Source of the DNA: Escherichia coli
GTDB lineage: Bacteria > Pseudomonadota > Gammaproteobacteria > Enterobacterales > Enterobacteriaceae
Assembly (NCBI RefSeq): GCF_029227855.1
Contig: NZ_CP074356.1
Length of the DNA stretch: 64,000 nucleotides
Direction: 5' to 3' (one strand)
Part shown: positions 4,970 through 40,565 of the stretch, piece after piece
Layout of the letters: each line of letters opens with the position of its first letter
How positions within the stretch are numbered: the stretch's first letter is position 1
Notes under the pieces: model-generated
Seen by the model: only the letters and a program-made list of their open reading frames with translations
Database searches by the model: none
Told to the model about the DNA's origin: nothing
Made by a program: the position numbers and the translations under genes

Positions 4970-5653
4970 TTATGCGAGAGCCAATTTCTGGCGCGCGTAT
5001 TGTAGCGCTTTTTCAATCACTTGCTCAATGCTTAAGGTGGTGGAATCCAACACTAAAGCATCGGCTGCCGGAACCAGTGGCGCTACCGCTCGGTTACGAT
5101 CGCGGTCGTCGCGTTCTTTGATCTCGGCCAAAAGGCGCTCAAAGTTAACACTAAAGCCCTTCTCCTGCAACTGTAGCATGCGGCGATGCGCACGTTCTTC
5201 CGAGGAGGCGTCAAGGAAAATTTTCACTGGCGCATCAGGGAATACCACCGTTCCCATATCGCGGCCATCGGCAATCAAGCCTGGTAATTCGCGAAACGCG
5301 CGTTGGCGACGCAATAATGCTTCACGAACGCGTGGGAATGCCGCGACTTGTGAAGCAGCATTCGCCACTTCCTGAGTACGAATTTCGCCGCTGACATCTT
5401 CCCCTTCGAGGATCACTTCCAGATTGCCATTGGTCGACACAAAACGTACATCCAGATGGGATGCCAGCGGCACGAGCGCATCTTCCGATGCAACATCAAC
5501 ATGGTGATGTAATGCCGCCAGTGCCAGTACGCGATAAATTGCACCCGAGTCCAGCAGATGCCATTGCAACGCTTCCGCCATAGCCTTACACAAGGTGCCT
5601 TTCCCTGCACCGCTTGGGCCATCAATGGTAATAACCGGGGCAATTGCCGTCAT
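4970..5653 (-). CDS. cmk: Cytidylate kinase
   Basis: 227-aa ORF with P-loop GPSGAGKGT near the N-terminus; immediately upstream of rpsA. Confidence 0.96.
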
Positions 5654-10221: not shown

Positions 10222-11982
10222 ATGACGCAAACATTTATCCCCGGCAAAGATGCCGCACTGGAAGATTCCATCGCTCGCTTCCAGCAAAAACTTTCAGACC
10301 TCGGCTTTCAGATTGAAGAGGCCTCCTGGCTGAATCCGGTGCCTAACGTCTGGTCTGTACATATTCGCGACAAAGAGTGCGCACTGTGTTTTACCAACGG
10401 TAAAGGCGCAACCAAAAAAGCGGCGCTGGCTTCTGCACTCGGTGAATATTTCGAGCGTCTCTCAACCAACTACTTTTTTGCTGATTTCTGGCTGGGCGAA
10501 ACCATCGCCAACGGTCCGTTCGTGCATTATCCCAACGAAAAATGGTTCCCACTGAGCGAAAATGACGATGTGCCAGAAGGGCTGCTCGATGACCGTCTGC
10601 GCGCATTTTACGATCCGGAGAATGAATTGACCGGCAGTATGCTGATTGACCTGCAATCCGGTAACGAAGATCGTGGTATTTGCGGTCTGCCGTTTACGCG
10701 CCAGTCCGACAATCAGACCGTTTATATTCCGATGAATATCATTGGTAACCTGTACGTTTCTAACGGTATGTCCGCTGGCAATACCCGCAACGAAGCACGC
10801 GTTCAGGGGTTGTCCGAAGTTTTCGAACGCTACGTGAAAAACCGCATTATTGCTGAAAGCATCAGCTTGCCGGAAATCCCGGCAGACGTGCTGGCGCGTT
10901 ACCCAGCGGTGGTTGAAGCCATCGAAACGCTGGAAGCAGAAGGTTTCCCAATCTTTGCTTATGATGGTTCGCTTGGCGGCCAGTATCCGGTGATTTGCGT
11001 GGTACTGTTTAATCCTGCTAACGGCACCTGCTTTGCCTCTTTCGGTGCGCATCCTGATTTTGGCGTAGCACTGGAACGTACCGTGACCGAGCTGCTGCAA
11101 GGTCGTGGCCTGAAAGATTTGGATGTGTTTACTCCGCCAACCTTCGATGATGAAGAAGTTGCTGAACATACCAACCTCGAAACGCACTTTATCGATTCCA
11201 GCGGCTTAATCTCCTGGGACCTGTTCAAGCAGGATGCCGATTATCCGTTTGTGGACTGGAATTTCTCCGGCACCACGGAGGAAGAGTTTGCTACGCTGAT
11301 GGCTATCTTCAACAAAGAAGATAAAGAAGTTTATATTGCCGATTACGAGCATCTGGGCGTTTATGCTTGCCGAATTATCGTGCCTGGCATGTCCGATATT
11401 TATCCGGCTGAAGATCTGTGGCTGGCGAATAACAGTATGGGCAGCCATTTACGTGAAACGATTCTTTCGTTACCAGGCAGCGAGTGGGAAAAAGAAGATT
11501 ACCTGAACCTCATCGAGCAACTGGATGAAGAAGGTTTTGATGACTTTACCCGCGTGCGTGAGCTGTTGGGTCTGGCGACCGGGTCGGATAACGGTTGGTA
11601 CACCCTGCGTATCGGTGAATTAAAAGCCATGCTGGCGCTGGCTGGTGGCGATCTGGAACAGGCTCTGGTCTGGACCGAATGGACGATGGAGTTTAACTCA
11701 TCAGTATTTAGTCCGGAACGCGCCAACTATTATCGCTGCCTGCAAACGTTGTTATTACTGGCGCAGGAAGAAGATCGCCAGCCGCTGCAATATTTGAATG
11801 CGTTTGTTCGCATGTACGGCGCAGATGCCGTGGAAGCCGCCAGTGCGGCAATGAGCGGCGAAGCGGCGTTTTATGGCTTGCAACCAGTAGATAGCGATCT
11901 GCACGCGTTTGCAGCACATCAGTCGTTGTTGAAGGCCTACGAAAAGCTGCAGCGCGCCAAAGCAGCATTCTGGGCAAAATAA
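10222..11982 (+). CDS. ycaO: YcaO-domain protein (founding member of the YcaO ATP-dependent amide-activating superfamily)
   Basis: 597-aa ORF trimmed to MTQTFIPGKD (586 aa); location upstream of focA-pflB. Confidence 0.93.
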   Translation: MTQTFIPGKDAALEDSIARFQQKLSDLGFQIEEASWLNPVPNVWSVHIRDKECALCFTNGKGATKKAALASALGEYFERLSTNYFFADFWLGETIANGPFVHYPNEKWFPLSENDDVPEGLLDDRLRAFYDPENELTGSMLIDLQSGNEDRGICGLPFTRQSDNQTVYIPMNIIGNLYVSNGMSAGNTRNEARVQGLSEVFERYVKNRIIAESISLPEIPADVLARYPAVVEAIETLEAEGFPIFAYDGSLGGQYPVICVVLFNPANGTCFASFGAHPDFGVALERTVTELLQGRGLKDLDVFTPPTFDDEEVAEHTNLETHFIDSSGLISWDLFKQDADYPFVDWNFSGTTEEEFATLMAIFNKEDKEVYIADYEHLGVYACRIIVPGMSDIYPAEDLWLANNSMGSHLRETILSLPGSEWEKEDYLNLIEQLDEEGFDDFTRVRELLGLATGSDNGWYTLRIGELKAMLALAGGDLEQALVWTEWTMEFNSSVFSPERANYYRCLQTLLLLAQEEDRQPLQYLNAFVRMYGADAVEAASAAMSGEAAFYGLQPVDSDLHAFAAHQSLLKAYEKLQRAKAAFWAK

Positions 11983-12387
11983 AATCAAATAGCCTACGCA
12001 ATGTAGGCTTAATGATTCGTCTGAGTTATATTACGGGGCGTTTTTTTAATGCCCCGCTTTACATATATTTGCATTAATAAAATAATTGTAATTATAAAGT
12101 TAAATGTCGGTAATTTGTATTTAATAAATACGATCGATATTGTTACTTCATTCGCCTGGTGCTCCCTTTTAATTAACTGTTTTAGCGGAGGATGCGGAAA
12201 AAATTCAACTCATTTGTTAATTTTTAAAATTTATTTTTATTTGGATAATCAAATATTTACTCCGTATTTGCATAAAAACCATGCGAGTTACGGGCCTATA
12301 AGCCAGGCGAGATATGATCTATATCAATTTCTCATCTATAATGCTTTGTTAGTATCTCGTCGCCGACTTAATAAAGAGAGAGTTAGT
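11983..12387 (+). promoter_or_regulatory. focA-pflB multi-promoter control region (anaerobically regulated; FNR/ArcA/IHF sites expected)
   Basis: About 400-bp AT-rich non-coding leader upstream of the focA GTG start. The very long regulatory region with multiple promoters is established for this operon; individual sites were not mapped here. Confidence 0.6.
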
Positions 12388-13245
12388 GTGAAAGCTGACA
12401 ACCCTTTTGATCTTTTACTTCCTGCAGCAATGGCCAAAGTGGCCGAAGAGGCAGGTGTCTATAAAGCAACGAAACATCCGCTTAAGACTTTCTATCTGGC
12501 GATTACCGCCGGTGTTTTCATCTCAATCGCATTCGTCTTCTATATCACAGCAACCACTGGCACAGGAACAATGCCCTTCGGCATGGCAAAACTGGTTGGC
12601 GGCATTTGCTTCTCTCTGGGGCTGATTCTTTGTGTTGTCTGCGGAGCCGATCTCTTTACTTCCACAGTGTTGATTGTTGTTGCTAAGGCGAGTGGGCGAA
12701 TCACCTGGGGTCAGTTGGCGAAAAACTGGCTAAATGTCTATTTTGGCAACCTGGTCGGCGCACTGCTGTTTGTACTTTTAATGTGGCTTTCCGGCGAGTA
12801 TATGACCGCGAATGGTCAATGGGGACTAAACGTCCTACAAACCGCCGACCACAAAGTGCACCATACTTTTATTGAGGCCGTCTGCCTTGGTATCCTGGCA
12901 AACCTGATGGTATGTCTGGCAGTATGGATGAGTTATTCTGGCCGCAGCCTGATGGATAAAGCGTTCATTATGGTGCTGCCGGTCGCGATGTTTGTTGCCA
13001 GCGGTTTTGAGCACAGTATCGCAAACATGTTTATGATCCCGATGGGTATTGTAATCCGCGACTTCGCATCTCCGGAATTCTGGACCGCTGTCGGTTCTGC
13101 ACCGGAAAATTTTTCTCACCTGACCGTGATGAACTTCATCACTGATAACCTGATTCCGGTTACGATCGGTAATATTATCGGCGGTGGTTTGTTGGTTGGG
13201 TTGACATACTGGGTCATTTACCTGCGTGAAAACGATCACCATTAA
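12388..13245 (+). CDS. focA: Formate channel FocA
   Basis: Translation from GTG at 12388 (VKADNPFDLLLPAAMAKV...) gives the 285-aa formate-nitrite transporter family protein. The 398-aa ORF in the track is an upstream in-frame extension through the promoter region. Confidence 0.93.
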   Translation: MKADNPFDLLLPAAMAKVAEEAGVYKATKHPLKTFYLAITAGVFISIAFVFYITATTGTGTMPFGMAKLVGGICFSLGLILCVVCGADLFTSTVLIVVAKASGRITWGQLAKNWLNVYFGNLVGALLFVLLMWLSGEYMTANGQWGLNVLQTADHKVHHTFIEAVCLGILANLMVCLAVWMSYSGRSLMDKAFIMVLPVAMFVASGFEHSIANMFMIPMGIVIRDFASPEFWTAVGSAPENFSHLTVMNFITDNLIPVTIGNIIGGGLLVGLTYWVIYLRENDHH

Positions 13246-13299: not shown

Positions 13300-15582
13300 A
13301 TGTCCGAGCTTAATGAAAAGTTAGCCACAGCCTGGGAAGGTTTTACCAAAGGTGACTGGCAGAATGAAGTAAACGTCCGTGACTTCATTCAGAAAAACTA
13401 CACTCCGTACGAGGGTGACGAGTCCTTCCTGGCTGGCGCTACTGAAGCGACCACCACCCTGTGGGACAAAGTAATGGAAGGCGTTAAACTGGAAAACCGC
13501 ACTCACGCGCCAGTTGACTTTGACACCGCTGTTGCTTCCACCATCACCTCTCACGACGCTGGCTACATCAACAAAGCGTTGGAAAAAGTTGTTGGTCTGC
13601 AGACTGAAGCTCCGCTGAAACGTGCTCTTATCCCGTTCGGTGGTATCAAAATGATCGAAGGTTCCTGCAAAGCGTACAACCGCGAACTGGACCCGATGAT
13701 CAAAAAAATCTTCACTGAATACCGTAAAACTCACAACCAGGGCGTGTTCGACGTTTACACTCCGGACATCCTGCGTTGCCGTAAATCCGGTGTTCTGACC
13801 GGTCTGCCAGATGCTTATGGCCGTGGTCGTATCATCGGTGACTACCGTCGCGTTGCGCTGTACGGTATCGACTACCTGATGAAAGATAAACTTGCACAGT
13901 TCACCTCTCTGCAGGCTGATCTGGAAAACGGCGTAAACCTGGAACAGACTATCCGTCTGCGCGAAGAAATCGCTGAACAGCACCGCGCTCTGGGTCAGAT
14001 GAAAGAAATGGCTGCGAAATACGGCTACGACATCTCTGGTCCGGCTACCAACGCTCAGGAAGCTATCCAGTGGACTTACTTCGGCTACCTGGCTGCTGTT
14101 AAGTCTCAGAACGGTGCTGCAATGTCCTTCGGTCGTACCTCCACCTTCCTGGATGTGTACATCGAACGTGACCTGAAAGCTGGCAAGATCACCGAACAAG
14201 AAGCGCAGGAAATGGTTGACCACCTGGTCATGAAACTGCGTATGGTTCGCTTCCTGCGTACTCCGGAATACGATGAACTGTTCTCTGGCGACCCGATCTG
14301 GGCAACCGAATCTATCGGTGGTATGGGCCTCGACGGTCGTACCCTGGTTACCAAAAACAGCTTCCGTTTCCTGAACACCCTGTACACCATGGGTCCGTCT
14401 CCGGAACCGAACATGACCATTCTGTGGTCCGAAAAACTGCCGCTGAACTTCAAGAAATTCGCTGCTAAAGTGTCCATCGACACCTCTTCTCTGCAGTATG
14501 AGAACGATGACCTGATGCGTCCGGACTTCAACAACGATGACTACGCTATCGCTTGCTGCGTAAGCCCGATGATCGTTGGTAAACAAATGCAGTTCTTCGG
14601 TGCGCGTGCAAACCTGGCGAAAACCATGCTGTACGCAATCAACGGTGGCGTTGACGAAAAACTGAAAATGCAGGTTGGTCCGAAGTCTGAGCCGATCAAA
14701 GGCGATCTCCTGAACTACGATGAAGTGATGGAGCGCATGGATCACTTCATGGACTGGCTGGCTAAACAGTACATCACTGCACTGAACATCATCCACTACA
14801 TGCACGACAAGTACAGCTACGAAGCCTCTCTGATGGCGCTGCACGACCGTGACGTTATCCGCACCATGGCGTGTGGTATCGCTGGTCTGTCCGTTGCTGC
14901 TGACTCCCTGTCTGCAATCAAATATGCGAAAGTTAAACCGATTCGTGACGAAGACGGTCTGGCTATCGACTTCGAAATCGAAGGCGAATACCCGCAGTTT
15001 GGTAACAACGATCCGCGTGTAGATGACCTGGCTGTTGACCTGGTAGAACGTTTCATGAAGAAAATTCAGAAACTGCACACCTACCGTGACGCTATCCCGA
15101 CTCAGTCTGTTCTGACCATCACTTCTAACGTTGTGTATGGTAAGAAAACTGGTAACACCCCAGACGGTCGTCGTGCTGGCGCGCCGTTCGGACCGGGTGC
15201 TAACCCGATGCACGGTCGTGACCAGAAAGGTGCAGTAGCCTCTCTGACTTCCGTTGCTAAACTGCCGTTTGCTTACGCTAAAGATGGTATCTCCTACACC
15301 TTCTCTATCGTTCCGAACGCACTGGGTAAAGACGACGAAGTTCGTAAGACCAACCTGGCTGGTCTGATGGATGGTTACTTCCACCACGAAGCATCCATCG
15401 AAGGTGGTCAGCACCTGAACGTTAACGTGATGAACCGTGAAATGCTGCTCGACGCGATGGAAAACCCGGAAAAATATCCGCAGCTGACCATCCGTGTATC
15501 TGGCTACGCAGTACGTTTCAACTCGCTGACTAAAGAACAGCAGCAGGACGTTATTACTCGTACCTTCACTCAATCTATGTAA
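13300..15582 (+). CDS. pflB: Pyruvate formate-lyase 1 (formate C-acetyltransferase)
   Basis: 760-aa [19 protein letters not shown]-terminus, glycyl-radical motif RVSGYAV near the C-terminus. Confidence 0.98.
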
Positions 15583-15773: not shown

Positions 15774-16514
15774 ATGTCAGTTATTGGTCGCATTCACTCC
15801 TTTGAATCCTGTGGAACCGTAGACGGCCCGGGTATTCGCTTTATCACCTTTTTCCAGGGCTGCCTGATGCGCTGCCTGTATTGTCATAACCGCGACACCT
15901 GGGACACGCATGGCGGTAAAGAAGTTACCGTTGAAGATTTAATGAAAGAGGTGGTGACCTATCGCCACTTTATGAACGCTTCCGGCGGCGGCGTTACCGC
16001 ATCCGGCGGTGAAGCAATCCTGCAAGCTGAGTTTGTTCGTGACTGGTTCCGCGCCTGCAAAAAAGAAGGCATTCATACCTGTCTGGACACCAACGGTTTT
16101 GTTCGTCGTTACGATCCGGTGATTGATGAACTGCTGGAAGTAACCGACCTGGTAATGCTCGATCTCAAACAGATGAACGACGAGATCCACCAAAATCTGG
16201 TTGGAGTTTCAAACCACCGCACGCTGGAGTTCGCCAAATATCTGGCGAACAAAAATGTGAAGGTGTGGATCCGCTACGTTGTTGTCCCAGGCTGGTCTGA
16301 CGATGACGATTCAGCGCATCGCCTCGGTGAATTTACCCGTGATATGGGCAACGTTGAGAAAATCGAGCTTCTCCCCTACCACGAACTTGGCAAACACAAA
16401 TGGGTGGCGATGGGTGAAGAATACAAACTTGATGGTGTTAAACCACCGAAGAAAGAGACCATGGAACGCGTGAAAGGCATTCTTGAGCAGTACGGTCATA
16501 AGGTAATGTTCTAA
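15774..16514 (+). CDS. pflA: Pyruvate formate-lyase activating enzyme (radical SAM)
   Basis: CxxxCxxC radical-SAM motif ([10 protein letters not shown]); start trimmed to [10 protein letters not shown] (246 aa). Confidence 0.96.
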
Positions 16515-16522
16515 TTTCCCCG

Positions 16523-16558
16523 TAAAGCGGCAACTTTTTTGAGTTGCCGCTTTTTTAT
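16523..16558 (+). terminator. Rho-independent, probably bidirectional terminator between pflA and ycaM
   Basis: Perfect hairpin gcggcaact/agttgccgc flanked by A-run upstream and T-run downstream. Confidence 0.6.
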
Positions 16559-16723
16559 TCCGCTCTGCATAAATAATTCAGAGCTCTATTTCTAACGCCC
16601 TTACAGCACAGCTTCCAAATGTATTACCCAAACCGCCAGTATATGTCCTGCGGCTTACGCGCATTTCTCGATTATGTAAAAACGGGTCAGATCTGCCAGA
16701 GTCAGCGTCACCGACCACAATAA

Positions 16724-18154
16724 TTATTTACCATTCGCTTTACGCGCCAGCAGCGGGAATATCAGTCCTAATCCTACCAACACAAACGGCGTTGCAACAT
16801 TCAGCGCCAACTGGAAGGTCCACTCTGCAGTGAAGGCTTCCATTTTCGGGAAGATCCCCGTCAAACAGGCAAAGGCGGTAAAGGCAAAACACCAAATCCC
16901 GACGGTCATTGCCAGAGGCTTATTACGAATAAAGACATATTCTGGTTTATATTTCTGCGCCAGGCGAACGACTGCAATAAATGCAACAAATACCCATAAA
17001 TAACGCAGCGGCATCACTACCGAATTAAGGTTCAACAGCCATTTATAGAGATTGTTCATATCACCAATGCCGAGAGTCGGTAGCATTATCAGAATCGCCA
17101 CCAGCACCAGGGTCAGAAAATAGCCATTAACGGGCGTACCAGAAGCGTTGGTACGACATAAACTGGCTGGAATATATTTGCTGTCAGCATCGCCTAATAA
17201 CACTTTAAGCGGCGCATCAATCGAGAATACCAGCGCAGCTACTTGTCCCAGGGTATTCGCAATGGCATAAATCACCATTAAAGTATTACCCATGTTGTAA
17301 TACTCGCCCAGCTTCTGAAAGGCGTAATACTGACCGTTAGTCATTAAGTCATCCGGGATATTACGCGAGTCAAACATCATCCCCATCGCCAGTGAGCCCA
17401 GAATGGCACAAACCGCAACCATCACCGCCAGGCATAACATCCCTTTTGGAAATTCTTTTCCTGGGTTGCGCGTTTGATTAACGTAAGGAGAAATCTTCTC
17501 TGCTCCGCCAACCGCGAAAACCAGCATTGAAATAGTGGTAATGTAGGTAAAGTCGATATGAGGAATGAACGTTTCCCAGGTAATGTTTGTGGTCGCAATA
17601 TGCACTTCAGTAATCGCAGGCGCGGTTACCGCCATCGCCACATACAGGAGCGACATAACAAACATCGCAATCCCTGCCACAGAACCGACGATTTTCAGCG
17701 ATTTCATACCGCGTGAAGCAACCCACATAAAGAAGATAAACAGCACCAGCGTTAACCCCTGTAACGCTACGACTGAATATTCTTTGATTAACGAACCGTC
17801 GCCTTTCATCGCCCAACCGAGCGCAATCAGTATTGCCTGGGGTTTTTGTGCCAGATAGGGAATATGCACTACCCAGTAGGTCCACGCGGCGAGGTAAGCC
17901 AGTCCGGGTCCCATCGTGTGTTTAATCCAGGTACTGACCCCGCCCTTCCCATCTTTGAAGGTCGAGCCTAACTGACCAACAATTAGCGCATAAGGTGTGA
18001 AATAGAGCGCAAAGATAAACACCCATGAAAAAACAACCACCAGCCCCTGGTTGGCGTAGTTATTAACAACGTTGCCAAAACCCCAGACAGTGATAAAAGA
18101 CATCAGCGCAATGTTGTACCATCGCAGCTGTTTTTCCTGAACATTCCCAGCCAT
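16724..18154 (-). CDS. ycaM: APC-superfamily amino-acid transporter YcaM
   Basis: Polytopic membrane protein; start trimmed to MAGNVQEKQLRWYNIALMSF (476 aa). The 540-aa ORF is an upstream extension. Confidence 0.88.
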   Translation of the reverse strand: MAGNVQEKQLRWYNIALMSFITVWGFGNVVNNYANQGLVVVFSWVFIFALYFTPYALIVGQLGSTFKDGKGGVSTWIKHTMGPGLAYLAAWTYWVVHIPYLAQKPQAILIALGWAMKGDGSLIKEYSVVALQGLTLVLFIFFMWVASRGMKSLKIVGSVAGIAMFVMSLLYVAMAVTAPAITEVHIATTNITWETFIPHIDFTYITTISMLVFAVGGAEKISPYVNQTRNPGKEFPKGMLCLAVMVAVCAILGSLAMGMMFDSRNIPDDLMTNGQYYAFQKLGEYYNMGNTLMVIYAIANTLGQVAALVFSIDAPLKVLLGDADSKYIPASLCRTNASGTPVNGYFLTLVLVAILIMLPTLGIGDMNNLYKWLLNLNSVVMPLRYLWVFVAFIAVVRLAQKYKPEYVFIRNKPLAMTVGIWCFAFTAFACLTGIFPKMEAFTAEWTFQLALNVATPFVLVGLGLIFPLLARKANGK

Positions 18155-18317
18155 AGACAAATCCTTCGCCAAAATTAAAGGGGCATCTGTAAAACGAGGG
18201 ATTATGCGCGGCAAATAAGAAGTGCGGAAATAGCGAAATGCAAAATTATAACCTGCTGCACATTTTATTTTTAAACGAATAAAATTTGGAATAAAGCAAG
18301 TCAGATAGAAGAAACAA

Positions 18318-18354
18318 AAAAGCAGAGTGTGAAACAGTAAGTTCACACTCTGCT
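18318..18354 (-). terminator. Rho-independent terminator after ycaD
   Basis: Hairpin gcagagtgtgaa/ttcacactctgc followed on the minus strand by a T-run, just below the ycaD stop. Confidence 0.6.
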
Positions 18355-18363
18355 TGAATTCAT

Positions 18364-19512
18364 TTACACGTGAGCAACGGGTTTCGGCGTATGACCGGCG
18401 TTGCGAAGCAGCATCAGCAAATAGATAAACGATACGCTGGCGATCATGATAAACAATAAATTATCGGAGAAATTCTGCATTAGCATGGCAGTAAATGACG
18501 GGCCAAGCAGACTTCCCACGGTATAGCTCAACAGTAAGGCCTGGTTCATCGCCACCAGTTGATGATGTTCAACTTTCTCGCAAGCCCATGCCATCGCCAC
18601 CGGATATAACGTAAAGCCAGCGGCACCGAGGATGAATAACGCTGGGGCCATCGCCGCCTGGCTAAGCATCGCGATACTGCCGAGAATGACGACAAAGACC
18701 TGAACACGCAACACCAGCAGTCGACCAAACTTATCCGCCAGACGTCCAATCGGCCATTGTCCAAGGATACCCGCACTGACCAGTACCGCCATCCAGAAAC
18801 CAATGCTGGCATTGCTCACCCCTTTGTGATTGAGGTACAGCGGCATCAGGCCATATAGAGATCCCAGAACGATTCCTGAGATAATGCAGCCATTCACGCC
18901 AAGCCGCGCCTGACGGAGTTTTAGCATTGACGTAATTGACGTCGAATCATGGTTTTCAGCCTGCTGATTCAGCACACGCGTAAACAACAGCGGTAAGATC
19001 CCTGCCAACGTCAAACCTGTAACCCACGGCAATACGGACATCAGCTCGGTTGAAACTTTGCTGACCAGTAACTGGCCTAAAAACGTTCCCACGTAATAAA
19101 CCATCATATACGCAGCAAGCAAACGCCCACGGTTACGTGACGTCCCACTGCACATCAGCGCGCTCTCAACAACCACCCAAATCATGGCACAGCCGACGCC
19201 GGCGACAAAACGCCAAGCCAACCAGCTCCAGAATCCAATCATCAGGCCAAGGCCGGCACAGCCAGCGGCAAAAATGAAGGAGGCCAGATAATAGCTGCGG
19301 TTAAAGCCAATGCGCTTAATGACATACCCTGTCAGCAATGTACCGACCAGGTTGCCGGTAAAATAGGATGAGCTGACAACGCCTACCTGCCATGTGGACA
19401 TGTGTTCCTGGGCGAGCCAAAGCGGCACGAGTGTATTTAACACTGCGATCGCCAGAGTCAACAAAAGCAGGCCAGACAGCAAAAGCATGACAGGCCGGGT
19501 ATACGTGGACAT
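18364..19512 (-). CDS. ycaD: MFS transporter YcaD
   Basis: 382-aa 12-TM-type protein; position between ycaM and ycaC. Confidence 0.88.
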
Positions 19513-39491: not shown

Positions 39492-39579
39492 GGTGAGGTG
39501 TCCGAGTGGCTGAAGGAGCACGCCTGGAAAGTGTGTATACGGCAACGTATCGGGGGTTCGAATCCCCCCCTCACCGCCA
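39492..39579 (+). tRNA. serW: tRNA-Ser (anticodon GGA)
   Basis: 88-nt sequence GGTGAGGTGTCCGAGTGGCTGAAGGAGC...GGTTCGAATCCCCCCCTCACCGCCA with long variable arm and GGA anticodon; infA-adjacent copy, hence serW rather than serX. Confidence 0.95.
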
Positions 39580-39858: not shown

Positions 39859-40565
39859 ATAAATAAATATCCTCCGGCATAGCCGGAGGTTTTTCAAATG
39901 CGCCTATAAGGCTCTCTTACCAGCCGCGCCCTAACAGGCGCACACGATCTGACATTTGCATCCAACTTCGTTACTTACGGCCCGTAAACGGGCTGCCCGG
40001 ATAGGGAATCGATAACTGCTCTCCCATTTTATCCTCTTCAAGCTGGTGCTTTATGTAATCCTGTATCTTCGCCGTGTTCTTACCCACTGTATCGACGTAG
40101 TACCCTCTGCACCAGAACTCCCTGTTCCTGTATTTGAATTTCAAATCACCAAACTGCTCGTAAAGCATCAGACTGCTTTTCCCTTTCAGATATCCCATAA
40201 ACCCGGATACGCTCATTTTGGGCGGGATCTCCACAAGCATATGGATATGATCTGCACAGCATTCAGCTTCCAGAATCCGTACGCTTTTCCACTCACACAG
40301 CTTTCTCAAAATACTGCCTATTGCTCTACGCTTCTCTCTGTAGAACACCTGTCTTCGGTATTTTGGCGCAAAAACTATGTGATATTTACAGTTCCATCGG
40401 GTGTGCGCTAAGCTCTTTTCGTTCCCCATTGGGACCCCCTTTTGATTTCTTGTTTGACACTTGCAGTTGCCAGACCGCAAAGTGTTTTAACAAATCAAAA
40501 GGGGTTTTAATAACTGGCTCAAAGCTGAAAGCTTTCCGGAACCCCCAGCCTAGCTGGGGGTTTTC
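39859..40565 (-). mobile_element. IS200-type insertion sequence (IS200/IS605 family, single tnpA); ends approximate
   Basis: Y1/HUH transposase ORF plus IS200-type architecture: RBS-sequestering stem-loop just upstream of the tnpA start (40440-40500) and a perfect 8-bp-stem hairpin cccccagc-cta-gctggggg at 40538-40556. The serW-clpA gap here is about 709 bp longer than I recall for K-12. Ends estimated from typical IS200 geometry, plus or minus 20 bp. Confidence 0.6.
39971..40429 (-). CDS. tnpA: IS200 transposase TnpA (Y1 HUH transposase)
   Basis: 152-aa protein from MGNEKSLAHTRWNCKYHIVFAPKYRRQVFY with HUH-type motif (HIHMLV) and catalytic Tyr region, characteristic of IS200 TnpA. Confidence 0.9.
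   Translation of the reverse strand: MGNEKSLAHTRWNCKYHIVFAPKYRRQVFYREKRRAIGSILRKLCEWKSVRILEAECCADHIHMLVEIPPKMSVSGFMGYLKGKSSLMLYEQFGDLKFKYRNREFWCRGYYVDTVGKNTAKIQDYIKHQLEEDKMGEQLSIPYPGSPFTGRK

Follow-up and report, generated by a model that had tools for sequence, protein, structure and literature searches.

The 209-bp spacer that separates pflA from ycaM in this Escherichia coli chromosome is very probably the scar of a chromosomal deletion of ~1.5 kb, as judged from its sequence. We studied it within a window of 64 kb (the whole stretch of DNA that was analysed), which is 99.99% identical to E. coli JNEC-KY178 across its full length. In K-12, the genes ycaK and ycaN lie at this place. The deletion would have taken ycaK (bar its last few codons), the divergent promoter region between ycaK and ycaN and the first ~266 of the 302 ycaN codons. 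In fact, 12% of ycaN is left in the window, and there is no ycaK open reading frame.

The spacer and its gene remnants

The gene order in an MG1655-derived record is pflA - ycaK(-) - ycaN(+) - ycaM(-) - ycaD(-), with ycaN and ycaK divergent and 99 bp apart. The distance from the pflA stop to the ycaM stop is 1,680 bp in that record versus 209 bp in the window, a net difference of 1,471 bp. A preliminary description of this DNA had placed pflA and ycaM on opposite strands with a 209-bp gap and had given ycaK and ycaN as lying between the two genes in K-12. Both statements are borne out: the stops lie at 16514 and 16724, and K-12, with its 1,680 bp, does not share the short spacer.

Both neighbours of the spacer are intact (Table 1). 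The pflA product of the 99.99%-identical genome is WP_000111043.1 (RefSeq), the same protein as in K-12, and YcaM (476 aa) is 99.8% identical between the window and K-12. The last base of the pflA stop codon is at 16514, and the ycaM stop codon (16724-16726, minus strand) abuts the stop of a ycaN relic. Elsewhere in the window, the annotation of the 99.99%-identical genome places an IS200C-family transposase gene (~39971-40429, minus strand) between a tRNA-Ser gene (~39492-39579) and clpA. An IS110-family transposase ('RNA-guided transposase', ~51325-52350, minus strand) is inserted between aqpZ and lysO, and a pentapeptide-repeat protein gene (63165-64000, minus strand) is annotated as a frameshifted pseudogene that continues past the window end.

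Table 1. Features of the pflA-ycaM region, numbered along the 64-kb window
Feature	Position	Strand	Basis or remark
focA	5' of pflB in local order		
pflB	13300-15582	+	Identity confirmed by NCBIfam
pflA, pyruvate formate-lyase 1 activating enzyme, intact	15774-16514	+	NCBIfam NF008356, 524 bits
pflA-ycaM spacer	16515-16723		Exactly 209 bp
pflA intrinsic terminator	16524-16559	+	Hairpin 16524-16553 and T-tract 16554-16559; terminator scan
Relic of pflA-ycaK intergenic DNA, last ~4-5 ycaK codons and stop	16560-16610	-	Anchored alignments
Probable deletion junction	16605-16616		Pairwise alignments with K-12 left and right flanks, E. albertii, L005 and L006
ycaN pseudogene relic, last 36 codons and stop of a LysR-type regulator	16613-16723	+	tblastn, PGAP
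ycaM, APC-family amino-acid permease, intact	16724-18154	-	Pfam AA_permease_2; annotation of 99.99%-identical genome
ycaD	18364-19512	-	NCBIfam, 730 bits
ycaC	3' of ycaD in order	+	NCBIfam, 408 bits
dmsCBA	Next to ycaC	-	

With K-12 queries, tblastn found no YcaK match anywhere in the 64-kb window, and YcaN matched through residues 267-302 and nowhere else in it. This one match aligns 36/36 codons at 97% amino-acid identity (E = 2e-19), and 4/111 positions differ from the K-12 DNA. The relic lies flush against the ycaM stop, in exactly the syntenic position and orientation that it has in K-12. In the public annotation (PGAP/NCBI) of identical genomes, as well as of O157 genomes, a pseudogene with a truncated N-terminus already has these coordinates; it is named 'LysR family transcriptional regulator' or 'hypothetical protein'.

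By its domain content, the relic cannot be a functional LysR-type regulator, because the helix-turn-helix domain of K-12 YcaN (Pfam HTH_1) lies at residues 7-63 and its effector domain (LysR_substrate) at 91-290. Residues 267-302 alone are retained, which leaves no part of HTH_1 and the last 24 residues of LysR_substrate, and the relic on its own has no Pfam match. It lacks a start codon, and the in-frame sequence upstream holds a stop codon. An ATC to ATG substitution does give the relic an in-frame ATG and thus a potential 34-codon open reading frame (window 16619-16723, MYYPNRQYMSCGLRAFLDYVKTGQICQSQRHRPQ). No Shine-Dalgarno-like sequence is visible upstream of this frame, which is probably not expressed.

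The relic reads FQMYYPNRQYMSCGLRAFLDYVKTGQ..., and the YcaN homologue of locus L058 (the distant 'Enterobacteriaceae bacterium 89') ends in ...FQLYYPNREYMSCGLRTFLDYIRSQ. The shared ending shows that the relic encodes an authentic C-terminus of the family and is not spacer DNA that an insertion had captured. Searches with blastn and tblastn over 80 Enterobacteriaceae loci found relic matches in Escherichia (L005, L006, L008 and L009) and in the intact homologue of L058 only. The sequence thus behaves as a gene relic should, with syntenic similarity to an intact gene and with no counterpart in lineages that appear never to have carried it.

To the left of the ycaN relic, the picture is less clean. 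In BLAST, the window can be aligned with K-12 as far as 16570, a point 25 bp short of the K-12 ycaK stop, and again from 16611 onwards, 113 bp short of the ycaN stop, so that 1,511 bp of K-12 (ycaK and most of ycaN) are replaced by 40 bp in the window. When window 16565-16615 was aligned locally, without anchors, with the K-12 deleted segment, the score was 24 and the mean of the shuffles 24.8, which suggested foreign filler. Anchored alignments with other Escherichia led us to reject this idea in favour of a diverged relic. The stretch from 16560 to 16610 is colinear with the intergenic DNA and ycaK end of K-12, L005 and L009, with indels and many substitutions, and the relic of the ycaK stop codon is the TTA at 16601-16603. 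Over these left-hand 50 bp, ~18/26 alignable bases match K-12, with indels in addition, compared with 98.4% identity in the flanks. The sole significant blastn match outside E. coli is in E. albertii (77-78%). This window-type version of the intergenic DNA reads CATAAATAATTCAGAGC..., and we found no intact long allele that carries it. Since remains of both genes are present, the 3' relic of ycaN and traces of the end of ycaK, the spacer cannot be called an empty site.

The junction joins the 3' end of ycaK to ycaN codon ~264-267, and its position is ambiguous within about 10 bp. No IS remnants, terminal inverted repeats or target-site duplication were found there. The sole inverted repeat is that of the terminator, what direct repeats there are form short, imperfect families of two copies, and the 40-bp stretch is unique in the window. 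An IS- or transposon-mediated deletion was therefore rejected for want of supporting repeats at the junction. We propose that the deletion would have arisen by illegitimate, short-homology recombination and not through a mobile element, with the candidate microhomology read from K-12 as a proxy sequence.

We likewise considered, and rejected, that the spacer might encode a structured RNA or a known sRNA: Rfam gave no match near any gathering score on the spacer, and the minus strand of the relic region folds no better than shuffles (z = 0.24). One promoter-like match on the minus strand (16699-16671) is of the kind expected by chance.

The spacer still holds the pflA terminator. It is built on a perfect 12-bp inverted repeat (16524-16535 / 16542-16553) and is 93% conserved in E. 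albertii. On the plus strand, the predicted RNA has a 13-pair stem (-20.3 kcal/mol, z = -6.1) followed by TTTTTTATT. On the minus strand the hairpin also forms (-19 kcal/mol), followed by UUUA only, and the terminator scanner makes no call. Thus, the preliminary description, which spoke of a bidirectional terminator, was right for the plus strand and overstated the minus strand; it also overlooked the ycaN relic.

Three alleles in E. coli and their relatives in Escherichia

How common is the scar? We counted alleles in 5,426 complete E. coli genomes. The window junction occurs in one piece in 1,021 of them (~19%), O157:H7 included. Some part of the K-12 ycaK-ycaN segment is found in 3,341 genomes, at least 80% of it in 3,318, and the native pflA-ycaK junction in 3,316. 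In a third allele (1,047 genomes, strain H105 and ST131 being examples) ycaK, ycaN and ycaM are all absent and the pflA terminator is joined almost directly to the ycaD terminator: the T-tract of pflA connects, via about 4-8 unmatched bases (GTGC...), to the hairpin of the ycaD-ycaM intergenic region (window 18300-18330; L004 6805-6830). Together, the three alleles account for about 5,384 to 5,409 of the 5,426 genomes. Records classed as plasmids hold 5 of the 3,361 places that match the K-12 ycaK-ycaN segment, and on the EC96 chromosome the segment is interrupted by IS1.

The scar class includes O157:H7 and the nearest relatives of the window, at 99.5% over 22 kb. These are several strains named "405" and one O102:H6 strain, which we take to point to ST405 and phylogroup D. 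The 209 bp of the scar differ at 3 positions between the window and an O157 strain, the same divergence as in the flanking genes (98.7%). Since scar and flanks have diverged alike, the scar would be as old as the split between the window lineage and O157.

Other Escherichia carry related scars. In the E. albertii type strain (L008), the junction is colinear with the window and the left-hand 50 bp are of the same version, at 78% identity. In L005 and L009, representatives of cryptic lineages, the junction lies 5 bp away and the intergenic relic is K-12-like. One event followed by a 5-bp indel may lie behind the window-type and L005-type scars, or a single short imperfect repeat may have been the site of more than one event. 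The junction of L006 (Escherichia sp. MOD1-EC7003) is plainly of another kind: codons 250-301 of ycaN are left, and ycaK is gone but for its stop. From these junctions we infer at least three distinct losses: the window type, the L006 type and the pflA-ycaD type. A second scar type within E. coli was also considered, by searching for the L005-type junction in the 5,426 genomes, and was rejected; only the 1,021 window-type junctions matched, at ~79.5%. L005 itself is labelled E. coli, has about 95% identity in the flanking genes and behaves as a separate Escherichia lineage.

One further genome, L007, is labelled E. coli E69 and is a non-coli Escherichia at 91% nucleotide identity. It has no relic, and no pflA within 7 kb. 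Its synteny breaks exactly at the ycaM stop. Between 8620 and 15984, a hairpin and an EAL-CHASE9 / GAPES2-GGDEF / BcsA-like GT2-PilZ gene set (a c-di-GMP/cellulose-synthase-like operon) take the place of pflA after ycaM.

The relics of other Escherichia species contain indels that break the frame: E. albertii has lost 1 bp and L009 has lost 7 bp. A 56-bp core of the relic (window 16622-16677) shows only 3 differences from E. albertii. The identity of the relic core to that species is put at 87-90%, compared with only 47-69% at the four-fold degenerate sites of pflA, ycaM and ycaD. Selective constraint on the core was considered as an explanation and rejected, given that the 7-bp deletion of L009 lies inside it and that in L005 and L006 its conservation does not exceed that of neutral sites; exchange between species seems likelier. 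Because the left-hand 50 bp are far more diverged than the flanks and the relic, and because the E. albertii core lies above the four-fold sites, these patterns appear to indicate that alleles moved between Escherichia lineages by homologous recombination, either spreading the scar or restoring the module in the K-12 clade via the relic.

A variable interval and the rival histories of the locus

To place the locus in a wider frame, we scanned one genome per species with YcaD, annotating 80 Enterobacteriaceae loci by tblastn; ycaD and pflA were both found in 72. The interval between ycaD or ycaM and pflA ranges from ~45 bp to 5.8 kb across these 72 loci, and ycaM adjoins pflA in 23 of them. The order ycaD-ycaM-pflA, with a spacer of 50-160 bp before pflA, is that of Salmonella, many Citrobacter, Kluyvera, Yokenella and a Pluralibacter MAG, and blastn and tblastn over the 80 loci found no ycaN relic in such spacers outside Escherichia. 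In most other genera, ycaD adjoins pflA or unrelated cargo lies between them, for instance a secreted G/N-rich protein, a 266-aa secreted protein, a 5-kb PTS/transketolase/RpiR operon, another LysR gene or an invasin-like gene. The G/N-rich protein (189 aa) occupies the ycaD-pflA interval at 13 loci of Enterobacter, Leclercia, Lelliottia and related genera. The ~5-kb operon is found there in Klebsiella, Raoultella and some Citrobacter (L012, L023, L027, L051, L059, L069, L083), and its translated frames look like those of a PTS EIIA/EIIB/EIIC, split-transketolase and RpiR-type set.

The sole non-Escherichia locus with homologues of YcaN (68%) and YcaK (60%) is L058. At 11094-12673 of this locus they stand in the same orientation by pflA, and ycaM is absent. 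This suggests that ycaK-ycaN is a small module able to occupy the hotspot independently. Chromosomal integration hotspots between conserved core genes are a general concept, and the ycaD/ycaM-pflA interval resembles them in its variable size and unrelated cargo; unlike them, it shows no integrase, tRNA or mobile-element signature at the window site.

The most economical reading of these data, we infer, would be a gain followed by losses. An Escherichia ancestor would have acquired ycaK-ycaN at a variable hotspot between ycaD/ycaM and pflA; later, the module would have been deleted in the window lineage, and a larger deletion would have removed ycaK, ycaN and ycaM in ST131-type strains. Could the window instead preserve an ancestral, never-occupied site, into which K-12 alone inserted ycaK-ycaN? 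The spacers of 50-150 bp without ycaK or ycaN in Salmonella, Citrobacter, Kluyvera and Yokenella would fit such a history, as would the low G+C content of the segment (44.5% versus 50.8% for the window), but we hold it to be highly improbable. An insertion cannot leave the 3' end of the insert at an empty site, and yet the spacer contains 36 in-frame codons of a LysR C-terminus that are 97% identical to K-12 YcaN and share their closing motif with the L058 homologue. It also contains traces of the ycaK stop region, and the outgroup spacers are without any relic. The preliminary description had left the choice between a deletion here and an insertion in K-12 undecided, holding that the regulatory surroundings of pflA and ycaM differ in either case, and both halves of this alternative are true, at different depths. 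For the window lineage, the answer is a deletion, because the spacer keeps the last 36 ycaN codons and traces of the ycaK 3' end. At a deeper timescale only, ycaK-ycaN is an insertion, because the non-Escherichia relatives with ycaD-ycaM-pflA have neither the genes nor the relic. That the two genes have simply moved elsewhere in the genome is hardly conceivable. Neither YcaK nor any further part of YcaN matches in the 64-kb window, and, because the 3,318 genomes that hold 80% or more of the segment are matched by almost as many native junctions (3,316), displaced copies are essentially excluded by these population counts, which leave the 1,021 scar genomes practically no room for them. A fault of assembly or sequencing can be dismissed altogether, as 1,021 complete genomes, each assembled independently, share the junction, and other Escherichia species have it too.

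A weak point of the deletion reading is the left-hand 50 bp, which are far more diverged than one would expect if the deletion were recent and its ancestor K-12-like. A different history concerns K-12 and is compatible with the window being a deletion scar. Here, the scar would be the older E. coli state, shared by E. albertii, the window lineage and O157:H7 (we take the latter two to be phylogroups D and E), and the A/B1/C clade that includes K-12 would have regained ycaK-ycaN from another Escherichia lineage by homologous recombination, with the pflA terminator and the ycaN relic as homology. We consider this possible, on the doubtful side. It would account for the occurrence of the same junction in E. 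albertii, for the equal divergence of scar and flanks between the window and O157, for the homology between K-12 and the window breaking exactly at the segment borders, and for a K-12 pflA-ycaK intergenic region that resembles the cryptic-clade version (L005, L009, L006) and not that of the window and E. albertii. The long-allele strains that we saw presumably belong to A/B1-type groups, which would also fit. However, we found no lineage outside E. coli that has an intact module and could have been the donor, and the pattern is accounted for just as well if the scar allele itself passed between lineages. Moreover, the relic core of E. albertii, at 87-90% against 47-69% at flanking neutral sites, points to exchange between species, in one direction or the other, and not to vertical descent. 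Beyond the deletion itself, we tentatively envision a locus at which a regulator-enzyme pair was repeatedly lost from a hotspot while alleles moved between species; the left-hand 50 bp would then be two old haplotypes discordant with the flanking divergence, and the ycaK-ycaN module of the K-12 clade might have been restored via the relic and not retained.

Known parallels and consequences for E. coli

The scar recalls several known situations. Segments specific to K-12 and absent from O157:H7 (K-islands or K-loops) were reportedly defined in the first genome comparisons of O157:H7 with K-12. Like them, the present segment is a short piece of K-12 (1,511 bp) that O157:H7 and further lineages lack at the syntenic place, between stretches of colinear backbone; unlike them, its polarity can be read from relics, which suggest that the segment was present and then deleted and is not simply K-12-specific DNA. 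Bacterial pseudogenes erode by deletional bias, and here too a non-functional fragment stands beside intact neighbours, with indels in the relics of other Escherichia. In contrast to gradual decay, most of the loss would be due to a single 1.5-kb event with a defined junction. Lastly, the deleted unit is exactly a pair of a LysR regulator and its divergent neighbour, as described for YcaN-YcaK in K-12 (PMC9068703), a regulatory module that the window does without.

What would the loss entail? K-12 YcaK is an NAD(P)H oxidoreductase with a Flavodoxin_2 domain (Pfam), and it has been included in candidate panels of E. coli nitroreductases. Deletion of ycaN in K-12 lowers ycaC expression, raises that of ycaD and focA and gives a negative formate-utilisation phenotype (PMC9068703). 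In the same study, E. coli K-12 and Shigella boydii were the only carriers reported for the ycaN-ycaK-ycaM cluster (PMC9068703). Extrapolating from this knockout study, scar carriers would lack YcaN control of ycaC, ycaD and focA, together with YcaK activity. Termination of pflA and the coding capacity of ycaM would be unaffected, and no change in pyruvate formate-lyase activation is expected, because pflA keeps its own terminator.

The scar is an ordinary structural polymorphism, real, well supported and already visible in public annotation; the mildly novel angle is only the history of its alleles across species. As such, it offers a clean, small example of a gain followed by several independent losses at a hotspot between core genes, with a polarity that can be read from relics. 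In fact, YcaN and YcaK are missing from ~38% of complete E. coli genomes (1,021 with the scar and 1,047 with the larger deletion), among them major pathogen lineages such as O157:H7, ST131 and the close relatives of the window. Thus, the regulatory links inferred in K-12, to ycaC, ycaD, focA and formate utilisation, are not transferable to these strains.
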